Source: an uncultured Candidatus Saccharibacteria bacterium (GTDB lineage Bacteria > Patescibacteriota > Minisyncoccia > RBG-13-40-8-A). From it: DNA of 64,000 bases. The notes under the pieces are model-generated. The model had not been told where the DNA came from and ran no database searches. It was given only the letters and a program-made list of their open reading frames with translations. A program made the translations under genes and the position numbers. Positions 5,926 to 57,195 of this stretch are shown piece by piece. The stretch is from the NCBI GenBank assembly GCA_965231075.1, contig OZ246412.1:553787-617786 (forward strand), read 5' to 3'. The number at the start of each line of letters is the position of its first letter. Position 1 is the stretch's first letter.

Positions 5926-5998
5926 TGCGCTCAGAGGGAATCGAACCCCCGACCATCTCCTTAAAAGGGAGCTGCTCTACCGGCTGAGCTATGAGCGC
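5926..5998 (-). tRNA. tRNA-Lys (anticodon TTT)
   Basis: RC = GCGCTCATAGCTCAGCCGGTAGAGCAGCTCCCTTTTAAGGAGATGGTCGGGGGTTCGATTCCCTCTGAGCGCA; anticodon loop CTTTTAA; canonical D and T arms. Confidence 0.85.
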
Positions 5999-6047
5999 TT
6001 GATTTAAATCATAAATTTTAAAAAAATCTCTGTCAAATCTGGTTTGA

Positions 6048-6120
6048 TGCGCCGTGAGGGATTCGAACCCCCGACCATCTCCTTAAGAGGGAGCTGCTCT
6101 ACCAGCTGAGCTAACAGCGC
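6048..6120 (-). tRNA. tRNA-Lys (anticodon CTT)
   Basis: RC = GCGCTGTTAGCTCAGCTGGTAGAGCAGCTCCCTCTTAAGGAGATGGTCGGGGGTTCGAATCCCTCACGGCGCA; anticodon loop CTCTTAA. Confidence 0.85.
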
Positions 6121-6135
6121 ATAAATTATAACAAA

Positions 6136-6207
6136 TGCCCTCGAGAGGATTCGAACCCCTAATTCGACGTCCGAAGCGTCGCGTGTTATCCATTATACCA
6201 CGAGGGC
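6136..6207 (-). tRNA. tRNA-Arg (anticodon TCG)
   Basis: RC = GCCCTCGTGGTATAATGG...CGACGCTTCGGACGTCG...GGGGTTCGAATCCTCTCGAGGGCA; anticodon stem CGACG/CGTCG with loop CTTCGGA; T-loop TTCGAAT. Confidence 0.72.
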
Positions 6208-37798: not shown

Positions 37799-39175
37799 AT
37801 GACCAATCATGAATTATGGCAATCTGTATTAAGCGAAATTGAGCTTTCTATCTCAAAAGCTAATTTTGTGACCTGGTTTAAAAATACACACATTTTATCT
37901 CAAAAGGATGGCAAGGTTATTGTTGGTGTGCCAAACGGATTCACTAAAGAGTGGCTGGAAAATAAATATAACAAGATTATTTTTAAGGCGCTGAGAAGCT
38001 CCCTGGGCAGAGTTAAGAGCGTAAGTTATGTCATCGCGTCCAACACCAAACCATCCCCCGAAAAAACTACCAAAAAAGAAGACAAAAAAGAAAAAAAACC
38101 GATAATTGTTAAGGAGCAACTAGACATACAGGAATATAAAACCAACGAAAACACCAACCTTAATCCACGCTATACATTTGATTCATTTGTGGTCGCATCG
38201 TTTAATGAGCTGGCCCACGCAGCAGCTAGATCAGTGGTAAACGATTTGGGCAAAATTTACAACCCCTTGTTTATTTACGGCGGAGTCGGTGTGGGAAAAA
38301 CACATTTAATGCAAGCTATCGGTAATGAAATCTATAAAACCAAAAGCAAGAATATTGTTTACTTGTCTTCGGAAAAGTTTAGCGCCGACCTTATCTCCTC
38401 CATCTCTGAAGGGAAGGTAGAGCAATTCAAAGAAAAATATAGAAAGGCCGATGTTTTAATCATTGATGATATTCAATTTCTGGCGGGGAAAGAAAAGACT
38501 CAAGAAATATTCTTTCACACGTTTAATAGTTTGTATGAAAAAAACAAACAAATTATTTTATCCAGTGATCGACCACCCAAGGCCATCCCCACCCTTGAAG
38601 AACGCCTAAGATCACGTTTTGAGGGCGGAATGATCGCCGATATTAGTATGCCCGATTTTGAGACCAGATTAGTGATATTAAAGAAAAAGGCCCAAGAAAT
38701 CGGCATTGAATTATCTGATGAGGCACTAAGCTATATTGCATCTAATGTCCAAAGAAATATTCGGGAATTGGAGGGCGCATTAAATCGAGTGGTGGCATTT
38801 ATTAGAATGAACAACACTATCCCAAACCAGAAACAGCTTATTAAAATATTGAAAACCGTTATCTCTAATCCACAAAAAAGAACTAACTATAAAAAAATAG
38901 CTGAAATTGTTGCCGAGTTTTATGATATTAATGTTAATGAATTAATTAATAGAAGCAGGAAACAAGAAGTTGTTAGGCCTCGCCAAATAGCAATGTATCT
39001 GATGCGCGAGGAATTAAAAAGTTCATATCCTTTTATTGGATCTAAATTAGGAGGAAGAGATCACACTACTGCAATTTATGCTTGTGAAAAAATTGCCAAA
39101 GAAAAAGACATAGATAATGAATTAGAACAAGATTTAAATTTAATAAAAGAAAGACTGTATAGTGAATCAATATAA
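37799..39175 (+). CDS. dnaA: Chromosomal replication initiator DnaA
   Basis: Walker A GGVGVGKTHL, AAA+ motifs, C-terminal DnaA box-binding domain (KSSYPFIGSKLGGRDHTTAIYA). The ORF track starts at a TTG at 37793; the ATG at 37799 is preferred. Confidence 0.95.
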   Translation: MTNHELWQSVLSEIELSISKANFVTWFKNTHILSQKDGKVIVGVPNGFTKEWLENKYNKIIFKALRSSLGRVKSVSYVIASNTKPSPEKTTKKEDKKEKKPIIVKEQLDIQEYKTNENTNLNPRYTFDSFVVASFNELAHAAARSVVNDLGKIYNPLFIYGGVGVGKTHLMQAIGNEIYKTKSKNIVYLSSEKFSADLISSISEGKVEQFKEKYRKADVLIIDDIQFLAGKEKTQEIFFHTFNSLYEKNKQIILSSDRPPKAIPTLEERLRSRFEGGMIADISMPDFETRLVILKKKAQEIGIELSDEALSYIASNVQRNIRELEGALNRVVAFIRMNNTIPNQKQLIKILKTVISNPQKRTNYKKIAEIVAEFYDINVNELINRSRKQEVVRPRQIAMYLMREELKSSYPFIGSKLGGRDHTTAIYACEKIAKEKDIDNELEQDLNLIKERLYSESI

Positions 39176-39385
39176 TATTAATTTGTTAATAAGTAGTAGA
39201 TTAAGTTGTTTATAAAATTAAGGTTTAGAAATTTTACACAAATTAATAAGGTTTTTTAAGTTTATTATTCATACTATTTTACACATAATTTATTTAATTT
39301 TATATAGTATAAAAATAAGTTTTCCACAAAAAATTAAAACATAATAATAGTAATAATTTTTATTTATTAATTAATTATTAAATAT
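39176..39385. promoter_or_regulatory. Candidate oriC: AT-rich dnaA-dnaN spacer with DnaA-box-like motifs
   Basis: 210 bp at ~15% GC; three TTTTMCACA-type boxes (ttttacacaaat, attttacacata, ttttccacaaaa) and long A/T tracts (DUE-like). Confidence 0.5.
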
Positions 39386-40501
39386 ATGAAATTAATTTGT
39401 CTTCAAGAAAATTTAAAAAAAGGATTAAATAATATTTCCAATATAACTGGAAAGAATCTAACTCTACCAATTTTAAATAATATTTTATTTAATGTTGATA
39501 AAAAACAATTAAAACTATCAACCACAGACCTAGAAATGGCAATTACTAGTGATATACCTTGTAAGATAGAAAAAGAAGGAAGTATAACTATTCCTGCTAA
39601 ATTATTAGTTAATTTTATTAATAATCTTCCTAATAAAAAAATAGAAATAAACGTAAAAAATAATATAATATTTTTAAAATGCGAAAATTATAATTCTAAT
39701 ATTAAAGGATTAGATTCAAAAGATTTTCCAATTATTCCTAAGATTAAAAACGAACCAATTATTGAAATAGATTCTTATGAATTTAAAAACGCATTAGAAC
39801 AAATTATTAATTTTACATCTATATCTGATATTCGACCAGAAATTTCAGGAATTTTATTAGACCTTAATAATGATAAAAAAATAAAATTTGTTGCTACAGA
39901 TAGTTTTAGATTGGGAGAAAAAATATTAACCATTAAAAATCACAAAATCAAAAAAAATAATTTAGGTTTAATAATAATCCCCTTAAAAACGGCACAAGAA
40001 GTTATAAAAATAATTTCCAATTATGAAAACTGTGAATTAAAAATTAATATTGAAAATAATCAAATTTTATTTAATTTACCAGAAACACAAATAATTTCAA
40101 GACTAATTGAGGGAAATTATCCTAATTATCAACAACTTATATCTAAACAATTCGACACCACAGTTACAATATTAAGAGAAGAATTAATTAAGGCGGTAAA
40201 AATCAGTAGCCTATTTAGCAGCAAAATAAACGATATAAGATTAAAGGTAAACACCAAAAAATCAGAAATAGAAATTTTCTCACAAGACGCCGAACTAGGA
40301 GAAAACTCAGCCGAGATAAAAGGAGATGTAAGTGGCAAGGATTTAGAAATAATTTTTAATCACAAATATTTATTAGACGGACTGAATAATATTAATTCTG
40401 AAAAGATAATTATCGGTTTTAATGGAGATACAAGTCCGGGAATTATAAGACCAGAAGGAAAGGATGACTTTTTGTATATAATTATGCCGATTAAGTTGTA
40501 G
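39386..40501 (+). CDS. dnaN: DNA polymerase III beta sliding clamp
   Basis: 371 aa, immediately after dnaA; three-domain clamp length; N-terminal MKLICLQENLKKGLNNIS matches the DnaN start pattern. Confidence 0.88.
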   Translation: MKLICLQENLKKGLNNISNITGKNLTLPILNNILFNVDKKQLKLSTTDLEMAITSDIPCKIEKEGSITIPAKLLVNFINNLPNKKIEINVKNNIIFLKCENYNSNIKGLDSKDFPIIPKIKNEPIIEIDSYEFKNALEQIINFTSISDIRPEISGILLDLNNDKKIKFVATDSFRLGEKILTIKNHKIKKNNLGLIIIPLKTAQEVIKIISNYENCELKINIENNQILFNLPETQIISRLIEGNYPNYQQLISKQFDTTVTILREELIKAVKISSLFSSKINDIRLKVNTKKSEIEIFSQDAELGENSAEIKGDVSGKDLEIIFNHKYLLDGLNNINSEKIIIGFNGDTSPGIIRPEGKDDFLYIIMPIKL

Positions 40502-43156: not shown

Positions 43157-43186
43157 TATTACATTTTAATCATAACATTTATTGCT

Positions 43187-43229
43187 CCTAAATTAAAACT
43201 CCTCCAAAATGTGTTGGAGGAGTTTTAAT
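43187..43229. terminator. Bidirectional-capable terminator hairpin
   Basis: aaaactcctccaa-aatgtg-ttggaggagtttt followed by aatttttt. Confidence 0.55.
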
Positions 43230-43241
43230 TTTTTATTTCAC

Positions 43242-43457
43242 CTATTCTTCGTCTCCGTCTTCGTCATCTTCGTCGTCCTCGTCGTCGTCTCCAAGTCCGA
43301 AGTCGTCATCTTCCTCTTTTGTCTCTTCATCGTCGGCACCTTCGATTCCTTCTCCTTCTTCGATCCCGAGGTCTTTATCGTCATCACTTGCATTGTCGTC
43401 TTCGTCTCCGCTGAACGCAAGAATTTTAGAAGTTTCGTCAATGGTTGTTAAAGTCAT
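43242..43457 (-). CDS. Small extremely acidic protein (71 aa, ~50% Asp/Glu), hypothetical
   Basis: ORF with a terminator downstream; an alternative overlapping frame (43238..43441) encodes a basic peptide, so frame choice is uncertain. Confidence 0.35.
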   Translation of the reverse strand: MTLTTIDETSKILAFSGDEDDNASDDDKDLGIEEGEGIEGADDEETKEEDDDFGLGDDDEDDEDDEDGDEE

Positions 43458-43530
43458 GTTGATTACTTCTTAATTGTTATTTACCCCTATTTTAGGGCTA
43501 TGCGTCTTATTATAATTATAAAAAATAGCG

Positions 43531-43605
43531 TGTCAACCCCTGTTAAATAAAAATCTCTGATTTTTGATTTTTGTAACACAAAAATCATTTAACGGGGTCA
43601 ACCCC
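43531..43605. repeat. Long inverted repeat/hairpin between ruvC and the acidic-protein gene
   Basis: gtcaacccctgttaaat ... atttaacggggtcaacccc (~17-bp arms with a ~40-nt loop); the 9-mer gtcaacccc occurs twice. Confidence 0.45.
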
Positions 43606-43607
43606 TT

Positions 43608-47966: not shown

Positions 47967-48977
47967 TTAAATTAATTTTTCTTGTTTTCCGTTTTTTGGT
48001 TTAACATCGAGATGTTTGTAGGCGGCGGGGGTGACGACACGGCCTTGAGGAGTGCGAGCAAGAAAACCGATTTGCATTAAATACGGTTCGTAGATATCGG
48101 AAATCGTATCTCTTTCTTCGGAGGTAGCGGCGGCGATGGTTTCGATACCTACTGGTCCGCCATCAAATTTTTCAATAATAGTTCTAACAATCAATCGATC
48201 AATCGGTTCTAATCCCAAATGATCAATTTCCATCATTTCTAGTGCTTCTTCGGTAATTTTTTTGTTAATCTTGCCCTCTCCGTGAACTTGAGCATAATCT
48301 CTAACTCTTTTTAATAAACGATTTGCCACGCGAGGAGTTCTTCGAGCTCTTTGAGCAATTTCTTTTAATCCTTCCCTATCGGCCTCGATATTTAAAATCT
48401 TTGCCGAACGATTTAAGATATCTTCAATATCCTTTTCTTCATAAAAATCTAGATGATAAGTTGCGCCGAAACGATTTCGAAGAGGCGACGACAATAAACT
48501 AATGCGCGTGGTTGCAGCAATCATGGTAAATGGCGGGATGTCCAATTGAATACTTCTCGCCGACGGACCTTTGCCGATAATAATATCCAGATGAAAATCT
48601 TCCATCGCTGGATATAGATACTCTTCGATTAGTTTGTTTAAACGGTGTGCCTCATCAATAAACAAAACATCACCCTTTTCAAGATTGGTTAATATAGAAG
48701 CTAGATCGCCGACTTTCTCAATTGCTGGTCCGGAAGTAATTTTTATGTTTTTACCAAGCTCTTTAGCAATAATGTGTGCTAGTGTTGTCTTTCCTAGTCC
48801 TGAACCTCCATATAATAGTATGTGTTCGACCGCCTCATCACGTTTTTTGGCTGCTTCAAGCAAAACTTTGAGATTTTTCTTAACCTTTTCTTGACCAAAA
48901 TACTCTGTAAGCTCATTAGGCCTAAGAGTTTTGTCGAGGGTATTATCTTCTGATTGTTGTCGTGGGTCGGTAAACAT
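47967..48977 (-). CDS. ruvB: Holliday junction DNA helicase RuvB
   Basis: Walker [12 protein letters not shown], Walker [10 protein letters not shown], RuvB C-terminal winged helix; 336 aa. Confidence 0.95.
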
Positions 48978-48990
48978 GTGGATAAAAAGC

Positions 48991-49019
48991 TTGACAAGGT
49001 TTAGTTAATCTGCTATAAT
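48991..49019 (+). promoter_or_regulatory. Consensus sigma70 promoter (TTGACA-17-TATAAT) driving the ncRNA candidate
   Basis: cttgacaaggtttagttaatctgctataat. Confidence 0.6.
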
Positions 49020-49025
49020 AGACGC

Positions 49026-49287
49026 AGAGAATAGAAATAGGCGTAAAATACCTATTTTTATTTATGCTCTTTTTCAATAACCTGTAGGCAATAAGGGTAA
49101 CCAAATTTTTTATTAAAATTTACCCTTTGGAGCTTTTCTTAGTTTAGGATGTTCCGGTTCCCTCCTTGATGAGGTCTCAACTGGAGTATTCCTCGGAAAA
49201 TTTCTAAACTTCGGATCCTAAGCCGATGTCACTTGCCTACAGATTATTGGAAGAGAGCTTATCTCGACACAGTGTCGAGATTTTTTT
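49026..49287 (+). ncRNA. Unclassified structured ncRNA candidate (~260 nt) with its own promoter and intrinsic terminator
   Basis: No ORF. Long-range complementarity (acctgtaggcaa ... ttgcctacagat) enclosing local hairpins (aagggtaa...ttaccctt; ctcc...ggag; cggatcctaagccg). Ends in the terminator atctcgacacagtgtcgagat plus a T7 run (49261-49287). Confidence 0.5.
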
Positions 49288-50956
49288 ATCCTAAGATTCT
49301 TTCTACTTCGTCTAGAGTTGTAACCTTTTGCAAGACCTTTAACAATCCGTCTTGCTTCATTAAAACCATTCCCGATCTTATGGCAGTTTCTTTAATCTCG
49401 ACGATTGATGGGGTTTTCAAAATGACTTTTTCCATGGCATCGTCAACAATAAACAACTCAAATACGCCAATTCTTCCTTTATATCCTGTAAAATTGCAAT
49501 AAGCACAACCTTCTTTCGACGCCTCTTTAATTGTGGCCTTGTCGAAATCGGGCTTTGATACGCGGTCGGGTAAACTACCTAGGCCGTTTTTTATTTTTTC
49601 TAATGTTTCCTTGTCCGGCTTAATTTCTTTAGAACATTTAGGGCAGACTTTTCTCAATAATCTTTGGGCGATAATTAAATTTAATGCCGGAGGAATCATG
49701 GTTGGGTTAACCTTCATATCAATCAATCGAGGAATTGCTCCAGCAGCGTCATTGGTATGTAATGTAGAAAATACCAGGTGACCCGTGAGAGCGGCATTAA
49801 TTGCGGTTGCGGCAGTTTCGCCGTCGCGAACTTCTCCGATCAAAAGAATGTCTGGATCTTGACGCAAAATCGATCTTAATCCCGAAGCAAAAGTGTAGCC
49901 CTTCTCTGATTCAACCTGGGTTTGTTCAACGCCCTCGAGATGATATTCAATAGGATCTTCAAGGGTTATAATTTTTGACCCCGGATCATTAACCGCTTTT
50001 AGAAAAGCATATAATAAAGTAGTTTTACCAGAACCAGTTGGACCAGTGGTGATAATCATGCCGTTGGGCTTCTTTAATTCTTCTTGAACAATTTTAAAAT
50101 CGTCTTCTCGAATTCCTAAATCCTCCATTTTTAGGCCAATCGTCTTAGGATCTAAAATTCTCAAAACGATATTTTCGCCATAATCGGCAGGGATAATTGA
50201 AGTTCTAATTTCAATTTCTTTGTTCTGTGATTTAAAACTGAATCTTCCATCTTGTGGCACGTCGTGAACATTTAGTTTTAGCTCAGAAAGCATTTTTATT
50301 CGAGAAAGCAATAATTGAAATGACGCCGAAGGAATATCAGCGGCGTCTTGTAATATTCCGTCTAATCGATATCTTAGGCGTGTAGTATTTTTGGCTTCGT
50401 TTTCAAAATGCACGTCCGATGCGTCTAATTTTAGTCCAGCTGCCATAACAATATTTAACAATTCACTGGTTTGGATATTAGGTTGCTCTAATTTTTGTTT
50501 TAAGTCCTCAATGGTGTTAATTCCGCCTTGGATCTGCTGAAGTTCTTCGGAACTAATTTCTGCTTTTCGAGAAATATCTTTCTTCTCCGGTCTCACATAT
50601 TGAAATCGGTCCCACGCCCTTTGAATACTGCTCTTTGAAACAATGTTTGGTTTGGGAATGAATCCTTTAATTTCCAAATTATGTAGAAATTCAATAGTTT
50701 CCTTTAATCGTGGATCTAAAACAGCGACAAATAATTCCTTTTGTTTTTGTTCAATGGCCGCGGCCTGTGCTTTTTTTGATTCCATTTCAGTTGAAAGAGC
50801 TAGTGCTTCATCATTAATTGTAGAAATTCGTAAATCTAAATAAGGAAAACCCAGCTCATTGGCTAGGTTCTTAGCTTTTTGTTCTTCGGCCTCGCGGTGA
50901 AGTAATTTTATCTTGGCTTCGGCTTTTTGGTTTTGCTCTTTATCTTTTATTGGCAT
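49286..50956 (-). CDS. pilB: Type IV pilus assembly/type II secretion ATPase (PilB/GspE family)
   Basis: Walker A TGPTGSGKTT; GspE N-terminal domain; tetracysteine zinc-binding motif CPKC...CAYC near the C-terminus. Confidence 0.85.
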   Translation of the reverse strand: MPIKDKEQNQKAEAKIKLLHREAEEQKAKNLANELGFPYLDLRISTINDEALALSTEMESKKAQAAAIEQKQKELFVAVLDPRLKETIEFLHNLEIKGFIPKPNIVSKSSIQRAWDRFQYVRPEKKDISRKAEISSEELQQIQGGINTIEDLKQKLEQPNIQTSELLNIVMAAGLKLDASDVHFENEAKNTTRLRYRLDGILQDAADIPSASFQLLLSRIKMLSELKLNVHDVPQDGRFSFKSQNKEIEIRTSIIPADYGENIVLRILDPKTIGLKMEDLGIREDDFKIVQEELKKPNGMIITTGPTGSGKTTLLYAFLKAVNDPGSKIITLEDPIEYHLEGVEQTQVESEKGYTFASGLRSILRQDPDILLIGEVRDGETAATAINAALTGHLVFSTLHTNDAAGAIPRLIDMKVNPTMIPPALNLIIAQRLLRKVCPKCSKEIKPDKETLEKIKNGLGSLPDRVSKPDFDKATIKEASKEGCAYCNFTGYKGRIGVFELFIVDDAMEKVILKTPSIVEIKETAIRSGMVLMKQDGLLKVLQKVTTLDEVERILG

Positions 50957-53896: not shown

Positions 53897-53900
53897 TATT

Positions 53901-54050
53901 ATTCAAATTTATTTTATATGTCGATACGTGTTGGTGCAATCATAAAAATTATTTATTCGTCGATACGCGTCGACGCCCCAGCGTGGCGTCGCGCTCTCTC
54001 TCGGCCTCGCCCTAACCATGCGCTCGGCCTGCGAGGCGATCTCCTTAATA
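53901..54050. repeat. Repeat-family copy A: shared AT-rich terminus plus GTCGATACGTGT motif fused to a GC-rich (~70% GC) hairpin module flanked by 16-bp inverted repeats
   Basis: Left end attcaaatttattttatatgtcgatacgtgt parallels copy B (tttcaaatttattttacatgtcgacacgtgt). Inner IR ataaaaattatttatt / aataaataatttttat brackets cgtcgatacgcgtcgacgccccagcgtggcgtcg...ggcctcgcc...ggcctgcgaggc. Confidence 0.55.
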
Positions 54051-54085
54051 AATAATTTTTATTAAAATTAAAAATTGATATTTTT

Positions 54086-56996: not shown

Positions 56997-57034
56997 TGAT
57001 TTGAATTGTAATAAGGGTTATTATTAATCTGAGG

Positions 57035-57152
57035 TTTCAAATTTATTTTACATGTCGACACGTGTTGATTGCTCAAATTGTAGCAATCACACTAACTCTC
57101 AGCCGACTGCGGTCGGCTTCCGAGATTGTCTCAGTGTAAAATAAATTTAAAA
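57035..57152 (+). mobile_element. MITE-like palindromic repeat element (copy B), intergenic upstream of ruvA
   Basis: TIRs tttcaaatttattttaca / tgtaaaataaatttaaaa flank the core TGTCGACACGTGT, hairpin gattgctcaaattgtagcaatc, then CACACTAACTCTCAGCCGACTGCGGTCGGCTTCCGAG. Confidence 0.65.
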
Positions 57153-57195
57153 TATATTTAGAATAATTAGGTTAATTAGAATAATTAGAAATTTA

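Follow-up and report, generated by a model that had tools for sequence, protein, structure and literature searches.

A new class of structured non-coding RNA encoded between pilB and ruvB in Parcubacteria

The RNA gene and its locus

The window analysed here is a 64,000-nt stretch of contig OZ246412.1 (assembly GCA_965231075.1), and the subject of this study is the spacer that separates ruvB from a pilB-type gene within it (Table 1). The signals read in this spacer support a stand-alone non-coding RNA (ncRNA) gene that has a sigma70 promoter and an intrinsic terminator of its own and would give a product of ~235-265 nt; we regard both the gene and its fold as almost certainly real. The promoter scores 12/12 against the consensus, with TG before the -10 element, and is the sole full match in the scanned interval from 48000 to 50000. 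Transcription probably starts near 49026. The terminator is the sole terminator-like site in the same 2 kb, and its U-tract shares positions with the stop codon (49286-49288, minus strand) of pilB, the convergent gene.

The interval from promoter to terminator contains one internal ATG open reading frame (ORF; 22 aa, 49226-49294) and a TTG ORF that leaves it through the terminator; neither is conserved. A first-pass annotation of the window had described a TTGACA-17-TATAAT promoter, a terminator with a T-run ~265 nt downstream, the lack of a gene-like ORF between them and a setting between divergent ruvB and convergent pilB. Each of these descriptions stands: the promoter and the terminator lie where they had been placed, and the Pfam and NCBIfam matches agree with the names given to the neighbours.

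The spacer is also exceptional in its predicted folding. The minimum free energy (MFE) of the 263-nt sequence 49025-49287 is -96.3 kcal/mol, compared with -55.1 ± 4.8 kcal/mol for 200 dinucleotide shuffles (z = -8.63), none of which (0/200) matches the native value. The spacer is the most structured among the 12 intergenic gaps of the window, and its plus strand folds ~15 kcal/mol better than its minus strand.

Table 1. Coordinates of the RNA gene, its helices and its two neighbours (window numbering)
Feature	Position	Strand	Details
Spacer holding the RNA gene	48978-49285		308 nt, between ruvB and the pilB-type gene, both on the minus strand
sigma70-type promoter	48991-49019	+	TTGACA 48991-48996, 17-nt spacer with TG extension, TATAAT 49014-49019
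P1, optional 5' hairpin	49029-49063	+	13 bp, AAUAGAAAUAGG...CCUAUUUUUAUU; folding prediction
Conserved RNA core	49065-49260	+	Covariance-model match, model R1, 219.5 bits
P2, 5' strand	49067-49091	+	14 outer bp, one C·A or paired position, 10 inner bp CUGUAGGCAA
P3 hairpin	49093-49127	+	Stem AAGGGUA/UACCCUU, variable AU-rich extension
P4 hairpin	49128-49206	+	~33 bp; U-rich 4-nt bulge 49143-49146; apical loop 49165-49170
P5, small hairpin	49211-49226	+	UCGG[AUCCUAAG]CCGA, conserved loop WUCCYAAG
P2, 3' strand	49233-49257	+	UUGCCUACAG. UUAUUGGAAGAGAG; pairs with 49067-49091
Intrinsic terminator	49261-49287	+	Stem 49261-49281 (9 bp, 4 G-C, loop 3), T-run to 49287
ruvB, divergent neighbour (context only)	47967-48977	-	Pfam RuvB_N, AAA_lid_4, WHD_RuvB
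pilB-type type IV pilus ATPase, convergent neighbour (context only)	49286-50956	-	Pfam T2SSE

Conservation of the RNA in Parcubacteria

The first-pass annotation had called this RNA an orphan. That label has to be dropped, as 20 further copies were found across Parcubacteria (Paceibacteria), in metagenomes and metagenome-assembled genomes (MAGs), giving 21 loci with that of the window. An 18-mer taken from the best-conserved part of the RNA recovered 13 true homologues in a single scan of metagenomes; covariance model R1 was then run on contigs fetched via RuvB relatives and finds the RNA in every fetched locus in which pilB and ruvB are adjacent. The RNA occupies the pilB-ruvB spacer in 21/21 loci, a count that is biased towards this position because the loci were found partly through synteny. 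The ruvB loci without an adjacent pilB (L004, L006, L040 and L119) give no significant R1 match, and none of the unrelated viral contigs taken as a negative control (80 loci, 759 kb) scores with R1. Within the window, the core is the only significant copy.

By its RuvB protein, the window falls within Patescibacteria/Paceibacterota, and an identical RuvB is encoded on a 626-kb contig. The closest RuvB from another genome belongs to a MAG (L002) and is 95% identical to that of the window; the named relatives are Candidatus Portnoybacteria. In L002 the RNA is 90% identical and the promoter is the same, and the terminator hairpin is wholly different. Scores with R1 range from 140 to 187 bits for L106, L109, L110, L111/L112 and L113, and from 30 to 57 bits (E values of 1e-7 to 1e-15) for the GC-richer L005, L114, L115 and L117 together with L118. 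The RuvB proteins of these last five loci are only 63-65% identical to that of the window, and the RuvB relatives of the GC-richer loci are labelled Sungbacteria, Minisyncoccia and Parcubacteria. Most loci, the window included, have no same-strand gene downstream of the RNA. In L005 (1035-1290) the promoter (TTGACA-17-TAAAAT), the RNA and the terminator all lie on the pilB/ruvB strand, so that the unit has the opposite orientation to that in its close relative L114 and in all the other loci.

The transcription signals are kept along with the RNA. The promoter matches TTGACA-17-TATAAT at 12/12 positions in 12 of the 21 loci and at no fewer than ten (>=10/12) in 17/21, and the spacer is 17 nt long in 19/21. 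At the other end, a dedicated hairpin terminator is found in the window clade and in L005. An unrelated hairpin with a U-run stands at the terminator position in L002, L088, L099 and L005, and in seven loci (L092, L089, L097, L109, L110, L111 and L113) a U-run adjoining the pilB stop codon comes immediately after P2. The function of the terminator is thus kept and its sequence is not, since unrelated hairpins, or P2 with a U-run, stand in for it.

Several assemblies of relatives end close to this spot. Those of L102:1-143, L103:1-123, L104:1-102 and L105:1-102 break 100-143 nt upstream of ruvB, at the expected start of the RNA gene. They are four independent assemblies of one lineage, with RuvB 88% identical to that of the window, and the four breaks suggest a repeat or a strain-variable cassette array at this position. 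The assemblies of L107 and L108 break 25-26 nt upstream of ruvB. A gene for an NYN-domain (PIN-like nuclease) protein lies between the RNA and pilB in L096:1563-2057, L100:2242-2757 and L106:3089-3586, and an NYN fragment is also present near ruvB in L098, L085 and L101.

Fold of the RNA

The core of ~190 nt has the form of a rod, in which the closing helix P2 (24-25 bp) and the hairpin P4 (~33 bp) are joined at a junction bearing P3 and P5. The consensus fold was obtained with RNAalifold from 15 distinct sequences (alignment A4) and comprises 65 pairs. The long-range closing helix picked out in the first-pass annotation (cctgtaggcaa / ttgcctacag) corresponds to the inner part of P2, and one of its pairs changes from C-G to U-A in 7/15 relatives.

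Three parts of this fold are conserved in sequence everywhere: the inner part of P2 (CUGYAGGCAA/UUGCCURCAG, in which L117 alters two pairs compensatorily), the AG-bulge-GG / UCCU segment of P4, and the P5 loop WUCCYAAG. The loop is constant where the P5 stem varies (UCGG/CCGA, UUGG/CCAA), and it is kept in the GC-rich subgroup as UUCCCAAG. The periphery is more changeable. P3 is absent from the GC-rich subgroup, where an additional hairpin 3' of P5 takes its place, and the model positions for P3 are deleted in L005, L114, L115 and L117. The apex of P4 in this subgroup is a CUUG or UUCG cap. A 5' hairpin of other sequence occupies the position of P1 in L002, L088, L092, L110 and L109, and P1 is absent in L083, L097, L100, L096, L089, L106, L005 and L114. 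Where it is absent, the -10 element sits 6-11 nt from P2; otherwise the two are 35-76 nt apart and separated by a 5' hairpin whose sequence varies.

Some additional interactions were considered and rejected. An anti-Shine-Dalgarno mimic at the P4 apex, where CCUCC resembles the 3' end of 16S rRNA, is at odds with this segment being a covarying stem and with the CUUG or UUCG cap in the GC-rich subgroup. Kissing of the P4 apical loop (CUUG) with the P5 loop (YAAG) fails in L109, and the apex is unconserved in the GC-rich subgroup. Pairing of the P5 loop with the bulge of P4 (UUUAGGAU) as a pseudoknot would have 8 bp in the window clade, but the loop shows no compensation when the fourth base of the bulge changes. 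A scan of all column pairs of A4 gave no convincing extra covarying pairs beyond alignment shifts.

Covariation and selection

The first-pass annotation had named covariation in a comparative alignment as a check on the RNA, and the covariation found here is strong. In A4, 97.5% of the cells are paired and double changes occur in 22/65 pairs, compared with 9.0 ± 1.9 in shuffled alignments; no shuffle (0/500) reaches 22, and slid controls give 3-7. P2 has changes on both sides in 9/24 pairs with 98.3% of the cells paired. P3 contributes a change from G-C to A-U at one pair, and the apical stem of P4 covaries between CCUC/GAGG, CUAU/AUAG and UUCU/AGAA. In a second alignment, A6, of the five GC-richer or divergent copies (L118 included), 91.4% of the cells are paired and 28/67 pairs have double changes, compared with 12.0 ± 2.4 in shuffles and 4-12 in slid controls; the A6 counts lean towards the structure of the model because A6 was aligned to it.

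Two G•U pairs, those of columns 86:129 and 95:121, never vary: they are present in 15/15 sequences of A4 and in 5/5 of the other subgroup. The plus strand is therefore the functional one, since these pairs would become A·C mismatches if the opposite strand were read. The four-fold degenerate sites of ruvB are only 27-47% identical between the window and its relatives, which means that they are saturated, whereas for the same pairs of genomes (low-GC type) the RNA core has 65-91% identity. In most pairs of this type the identity of the core is at least as high as the overall nucleotide identity of ruvB. The maintained promoter and 3' ends, the conserved core beside saturated ruvB sites and the inversion in L005 together show an autonomous gene under strong purifying selection. 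Two marks of a stand-alone ncRNA gene are found: a promoter and a terminator of its own that are conserved in relatives, and a structure with compensatory changes in excess of the controls.

Searches against known RNA classes

At gathering score, Rfam 15 gives only four tRNAs in the whole window. With the threshold relaxed to E <= 10, positions 48900-49400 give noise only (snoRNAs and a coronavirus untranslated region) and no 6S, signal recognition particle (SRP), RNase P or transfer-messenger RNA (tmRNA) match, and positions 900-1400 of L005 give no 6S, SRP or RNase P match. Among 18 related loci, no homologue reaches the gathering score of any family. No riboswitch family was matched in these scans of the window, L005 and the 18 related loci. 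ARAGORN finds nothing in 48800-49500, and there is no tRNA-like domain. Blastn searches against phage and plasmid collections gave no match.

The known classes can be set aside in turn. SRP RNA has no match at E <= 10, and the stem at the apex of P4 covaries and ends in a CUUGNU, CUUG or UUCG loop, with no domain IV. For RNase P RNA, neither RNaseP_bact_a nor RNaseP_bact_b matches at E <= 10, and the core has only ~190 nt and four helices. For tmRNA, both ARAGORN and Rfam are negative. The arrangement of a riboswitch, with a same-strand gene downstream and an expression platform that overlaps the closing helix, is lacking in the window and occurs only in L096, L100, L083 and L094. A mobile-element origin was also rejected, as there was no phage or plasmid match by blastn and a loose pattern scan of viral contigs gave chance matches only.

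A full-text search of the literature on the candidate phyla radiation (CPR), Patescibacteria, Parcubacteria and Saccharibacteria in combination with 6S, ncRNA, RNase P or RNA motif returned no description of this RNA, and the text of PMC5737381, the 224-motif catalogue published in 2017, mentions neither Parcubacteria nor OD1, pilB or ruvB. The RNA is a new structured RNA class, outside Rfam 15 and the searched literature. The first-pass annotation had been unable to recognize RNase P RNA, tmRNA or SRP domain IV by eye, which agrees with the Rfam and ARAGORN results. It had left three options. The 6S-like and the long SRP-type RNA fall away, with no Rfam match at E <= 10 and neither a two-sided bubble nor a domain IV, and the lineage-specific RNA is the only one to survive. 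It had also proposed that a protein gene conserved at the amino-acid level would overturn the interpretation; no such gene is present, and the interpretation stands.

Leader variants in a minority of relatives

In L096, L100 (two copies), L083 and L094, the RNA has no strong terminator and is followed, ~40-50 nt past P2, by an AAGGAGG-type Shine-Dalgarno (SD) sequence and an ORF of 57-107 aa. Between P2 and the SD sequence of these leader variants sits a CU-rich arm that copies the 5' strand of P2. For the complete transcripts of L100a and L096, the predicted MFE structure contains P2 and has the arm paired with the SD sequence; when the outer 5' strand of P2 is withheld, the arm is predicted to pair with the 3' strand of P2, which leaves the SD sequence free. 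The leader variants would thus work as follows: with P2 formed, the downstream CU-rich arm would be free to mask the SD sequence of the small ORF, and with P2 opened or cut, the arm would pair with the P2 3' strand and the ribosome-binding site would be exposed.

L100 contains two cassettes (2765-2900 and 1589-1818), which share the same terminator and the direct repeats D1, D2, D5 and D6. The second cassette (L100:2765-2900) has a TTGACA-17-TATACT promoter of its own and drives a different small ORF. Its RNA copy is without P3, P4 and half of P5, and it keeps both P2 strands, the 3' half of P5 and the SD-masking platform. A remnant of the platform, without an ORF, is present in L106.

None of the five leader-linked ORFs has a significant Pfam match, and just one pair among them shows mutual resemblance. 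These homologous ORFs (L094:140-313, start estimated, and L100:2931-3128) share the pattern M-x-Y-[IV]-L-[FY]-x-[IV]-[ND]-G-K-W-[FY]-V-Y..., and one of them has a sub-threshold YjbR match (E = 0.004).

From the predicted structures, we infer that the leader variants are a secondary co-option of the same RNA as a switchable 5' leader. The MFE structure of L083 speaks against this reading, in that no pairing of an arm that would mask the SD sequence is predicted. It looks as though the leader variants show that the state of P2 matters, in an arrangement that differs from that of the window.

Genomic surroundings

The pilus ATPase has TIGR02538 PilB as its best NCBIfam match, below the equivalog cut-off of that model. 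A weak match to the MshEN domain was also found at the N-terminus of this PilB homologue (49286-50956). The MshEN domain binds cyclic di-GMP in other bacteria, and the weak match hints at nucleotide signalling in this reduced genome. In a consensus scan of 48000-50000, nothing resembling a promoter for ruvB turned up in the spacer, and no terminator was found behind pilB on the minus strand; co-transcription of pilB and ruvB through the antisense strand of the RNA gene is therefore possible.

Elsewhere in the window, the gaps 56997-57195, 53897-54085 and 43157-43607 have minus-strand folding z scores of -5.8, -4.6 and -4.1 (mononucleotide shuffles), and none of the three has an Rfam match. The spacer 39176-39385 (210 nt, 12% G+C) lies within 38001-40000, where the window is richest in AT (GC 0.29). 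Four tRNA genes lie on the minus strand at 2005-2075 and 5926-6207, three of them clustered within 280 nt.

Proposed function and alternatives

The comparative evidence leads us to favour a trans-acting, protein-bound RNA, to which we assign somewhat less than an even chance. Such an RNA would be abundant and stable: the consensus promoter points to high expression, and the paired ends, the 5' hairpin and the 3' terminator point to stability. A partner, most likely a protein, would recognize the sequence-conserved centre, formed by the inner part of P2, the P5 loop and, within P4, the AG-bulge-GG segment and its invariant G•U pairs. The RNA would then be part of a ribonucleoprotein (RNP) or would sequester the protein, and in the genome of the window it would not regulate its neighbours in cis. 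The tip of P4 is only a structural cap and the distal helices covary, and both subgroups keep the sequences of the junction-proximal helices and of the P5 loop. A macromolecular partner fits best because the centre is constrained, the periphery covaries or is capped, the length of P2 is constant and the G•U pairs are invariant.

Several points weigh against a trans-acting, protein-bound RNA. The transcript, its ends and its abundance are read from sequence signals only. No neighbouring gene encodes an obvious RNA-binding protein, and two conserved neighbour proteins of 197 and 132 aa have no match in Pfam, NCBIfam or the PDB. Limited sampling or slow evolution could equally explain the conserved helix sequence. 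A base-pairing small RNA would fit the C-rich hairpin loop (UCCY) as well, and a ligand sensor would fit the switch-like platforms of some relatives. In addition, the near-perfect 25-bp helix would be an RNase III substrate, so the mature species may differ from the primary transcript.

In a riboswitch-like sensor, a ligand at the junction would stabilize the fold, P2 with the U-run would terminate transcription and so limit antisense read-through into pilB, and the leader variants would mask their SD sequences. The conserved junction core with its variable, capped peripheral helices is compatible with this, as are the seven loci in which P2 runs directly into the U-run and the three-way alternative pairing (P2 5' strand, P2 3' strand, arm and SD sequence) in L096, L100a, L100b and L094; the weak MshEN match on pilB makes nucleotide signalling at the locus conceivable. 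However, the window and most loci have no same-strand gene downstream, and in the window the terminator is separate from P2 with no alternative pairing, which implies constitutive termination. The closing helix of 24-25 bp is far more stable than ligand-gated P1 helices, the leader-linked ORFs are, but for the homologous pair, mutually unrelated and without a Pfam family, L100b retains its platform despite the deletion of P3, P4 and half of P5, and no Rfam riboswitch model matches. We consider a sensor unlikely. Much the same holds for a base-pairing or antisense regulator, in which the C-rich P5 loop would seed pairing with mRNAs or convergent transcription would disturb pilB-ruvB read-through. 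The loop is single-stranded and conserved, and AUCCUAAG (49215-49222) is complementary over 8 bp to CUUAGGAU (49288-49295, minus strand), which covers the last pilB codons (Ile-Leu-Gly) and the stop codon. This site lies 25 nt past the core defined by the covariance model, 0/110 control windows inside pilB do as well, and the complementarity recurs, with wobbles, in L002, L088 and L099. It falls, however, to 4-6 bp in L111, L113 and L083 and to 3-4 bp in L114, L115, L117 and L118, and it is explicable by conserved Leu-Gly codons. Other CTTAGGA sites, counted irrespective of start codons, number 8 in the window against ~8 expected by chance. The possible co-transcription of pilB and ruvB would suit an antisense role, but in L005 the RNA shares its strand with both neighbours. 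Neither an antisense RNA nor a seed would need selection as strong as that on this 190-nt fold and its invariant G•U pairs, and regulation of this kind appears improbable.

A 6S-like RNA, that is, an abundant rod that binds the sigma70 holoenzyme as a mimic of the open promoter, would agree with the ~190-nt core, its ends paired in a long closing stem, the long apical stem and the abundance implied by the consensus promoter. The co-transcription of a downstream ORF in some relatives resembles ssrS-ygfA, and no account of a 6S RNA from these bacteria was found in the literature searched. Against it, there is no Rfam 6S match at E <= 10 in the window or L005, the homologues stay below the gathering score, and the supported fold has no two-sided central bubble and places P3 and P5 at its centre. 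In the GC-rich subgroup P2 enters P4 with 0-1 unpaired nucleotides on the 5' strand, and the window type has a stable, covarying hairpin there; we judge a 6S-like RNA to be very unlikely. The probability that the locus acts as a DNA-level element, be it a cruciform, an operator pair or a recombination site of inverted repeats next to the Holliday-junction genes, is smaller still. There are long inverted repeats beside ruvB, CTGCAG-type palindromes occur in the inner repeat of some relatives, and L100 duplicates the ends of the element. Many of the G•U pairs of the plus strand, some of them invariant, would nevertheless be A·C on the complement and mismatches in a DNA hairpin; the inner repeat of the window, CTGTAG, is non-palindromic and complementary to its partner via a compensatory change, and the element lies between a conserved promoter and terminators. 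The least credible account, with a probability close to nil, is that a small protein gene was mis-called here. The 22-aa ORF has its ATG in frame with the downstream ORFs in L100. But this ATG lies inside the fold with no SD sequence before it and is missing in L110, L111 and L113, the frame in L096 stops after 19 codons, and the substitutions are compensatory in helices and not three-periodic.

A bolder reading can also be put forward. The RNA might be the first described member of a class of housekeeping RNA that spans Parcubacteria and has a job unlike those of known bacterial small RNAs, for instance as the subunit of an unrecognized RNP or as a global regulator that replaces 6S-type control in these reduced genomes; either way, the folding state of its closing helix would be read directly by downstream genes in some lineages. 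We offer this reading as a speculation that is rather doubtful.

Comparison with known systems

Parcubacteria and other CPR bacteria are ultrasmall, have genomes of ~0.6-1 Mb and have lost much of the standard bacterial regulation. To our knowledge, almost no ncRNAs have been described from CPR bacteria beyond rRNA, tRNA, RNase P RNA, SRP RNA and tmRNA. An RNA gene that is kept in one spot across the class under a consensus promoter is likely to have a central role. The present RNA adds a new, well-supported structured class from a sparsely described part of the tree. The covariance model and the 21-locus alignment make its distribution, its expression in metatranscriptomes and its protein or ligand partners directly testable, and the leader variants provide a natural reporter of the folding state of the RNA.

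In general shape, the RNA is like the rod-like, protein-bound small RNAs (6S, Y and SRP RNAs), yet the testable defining features of each of these fail. With 6S RNA (SsrS; RF00013) it shares a stand-alone length of ~190 nt, ends paired in a long closing stem, a long apical stem, a strong housekeeping-type promoter and, in some cases, co-oriented ORFs downstream. It differs in having no Rfam 6S match, in a centre that is a three- or four-way junction with hairpins, and in a 5' strand that is continuously paired in the GC-rich subgroup, with no two-sided bubble. The likeness to the Y RNAs (bound by Ro/Rsr) and to 4.5S/SRP RNA consists in ends that pair as a terminal stem with a U-tract behind it, extra hairpins at a central loop or junction, and a conserved stem sequence suggestive of recognition by a protein. 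There is, by contrast, no Rfam match to these RNAs, the window fragment has neither an SRP domain IV motif nor a tRNA-like module, and no rsr or ffh gene is seen near the present locus.

Translational riboswitch platforms are resembled in L096, L100 and L094, where the 3' strand of the closing helix has two possible partners, its own 5' strand and a downstream arm that could otherwise mask the SD sequence. The platform is absent from the window and most members, however, the closing helix has 24-25 bp, and the platform is retained even where the RNA copy ahead of it is internally deleted. The raiA motif RNA and Bacteroidales-1 are orphan, lineage-specific structured RNAs that were reportedly found through comparative genomics by Weinberg and co-workers in 2010 and 2017. 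The present RNA differs from them in sequence, fold and host lineage (Parcubacteria) and lies outside Rfam 15; it shares with them a promoter and terminator of its own, strong covariation, a fixed neighbourhood and confinement to one lineage.

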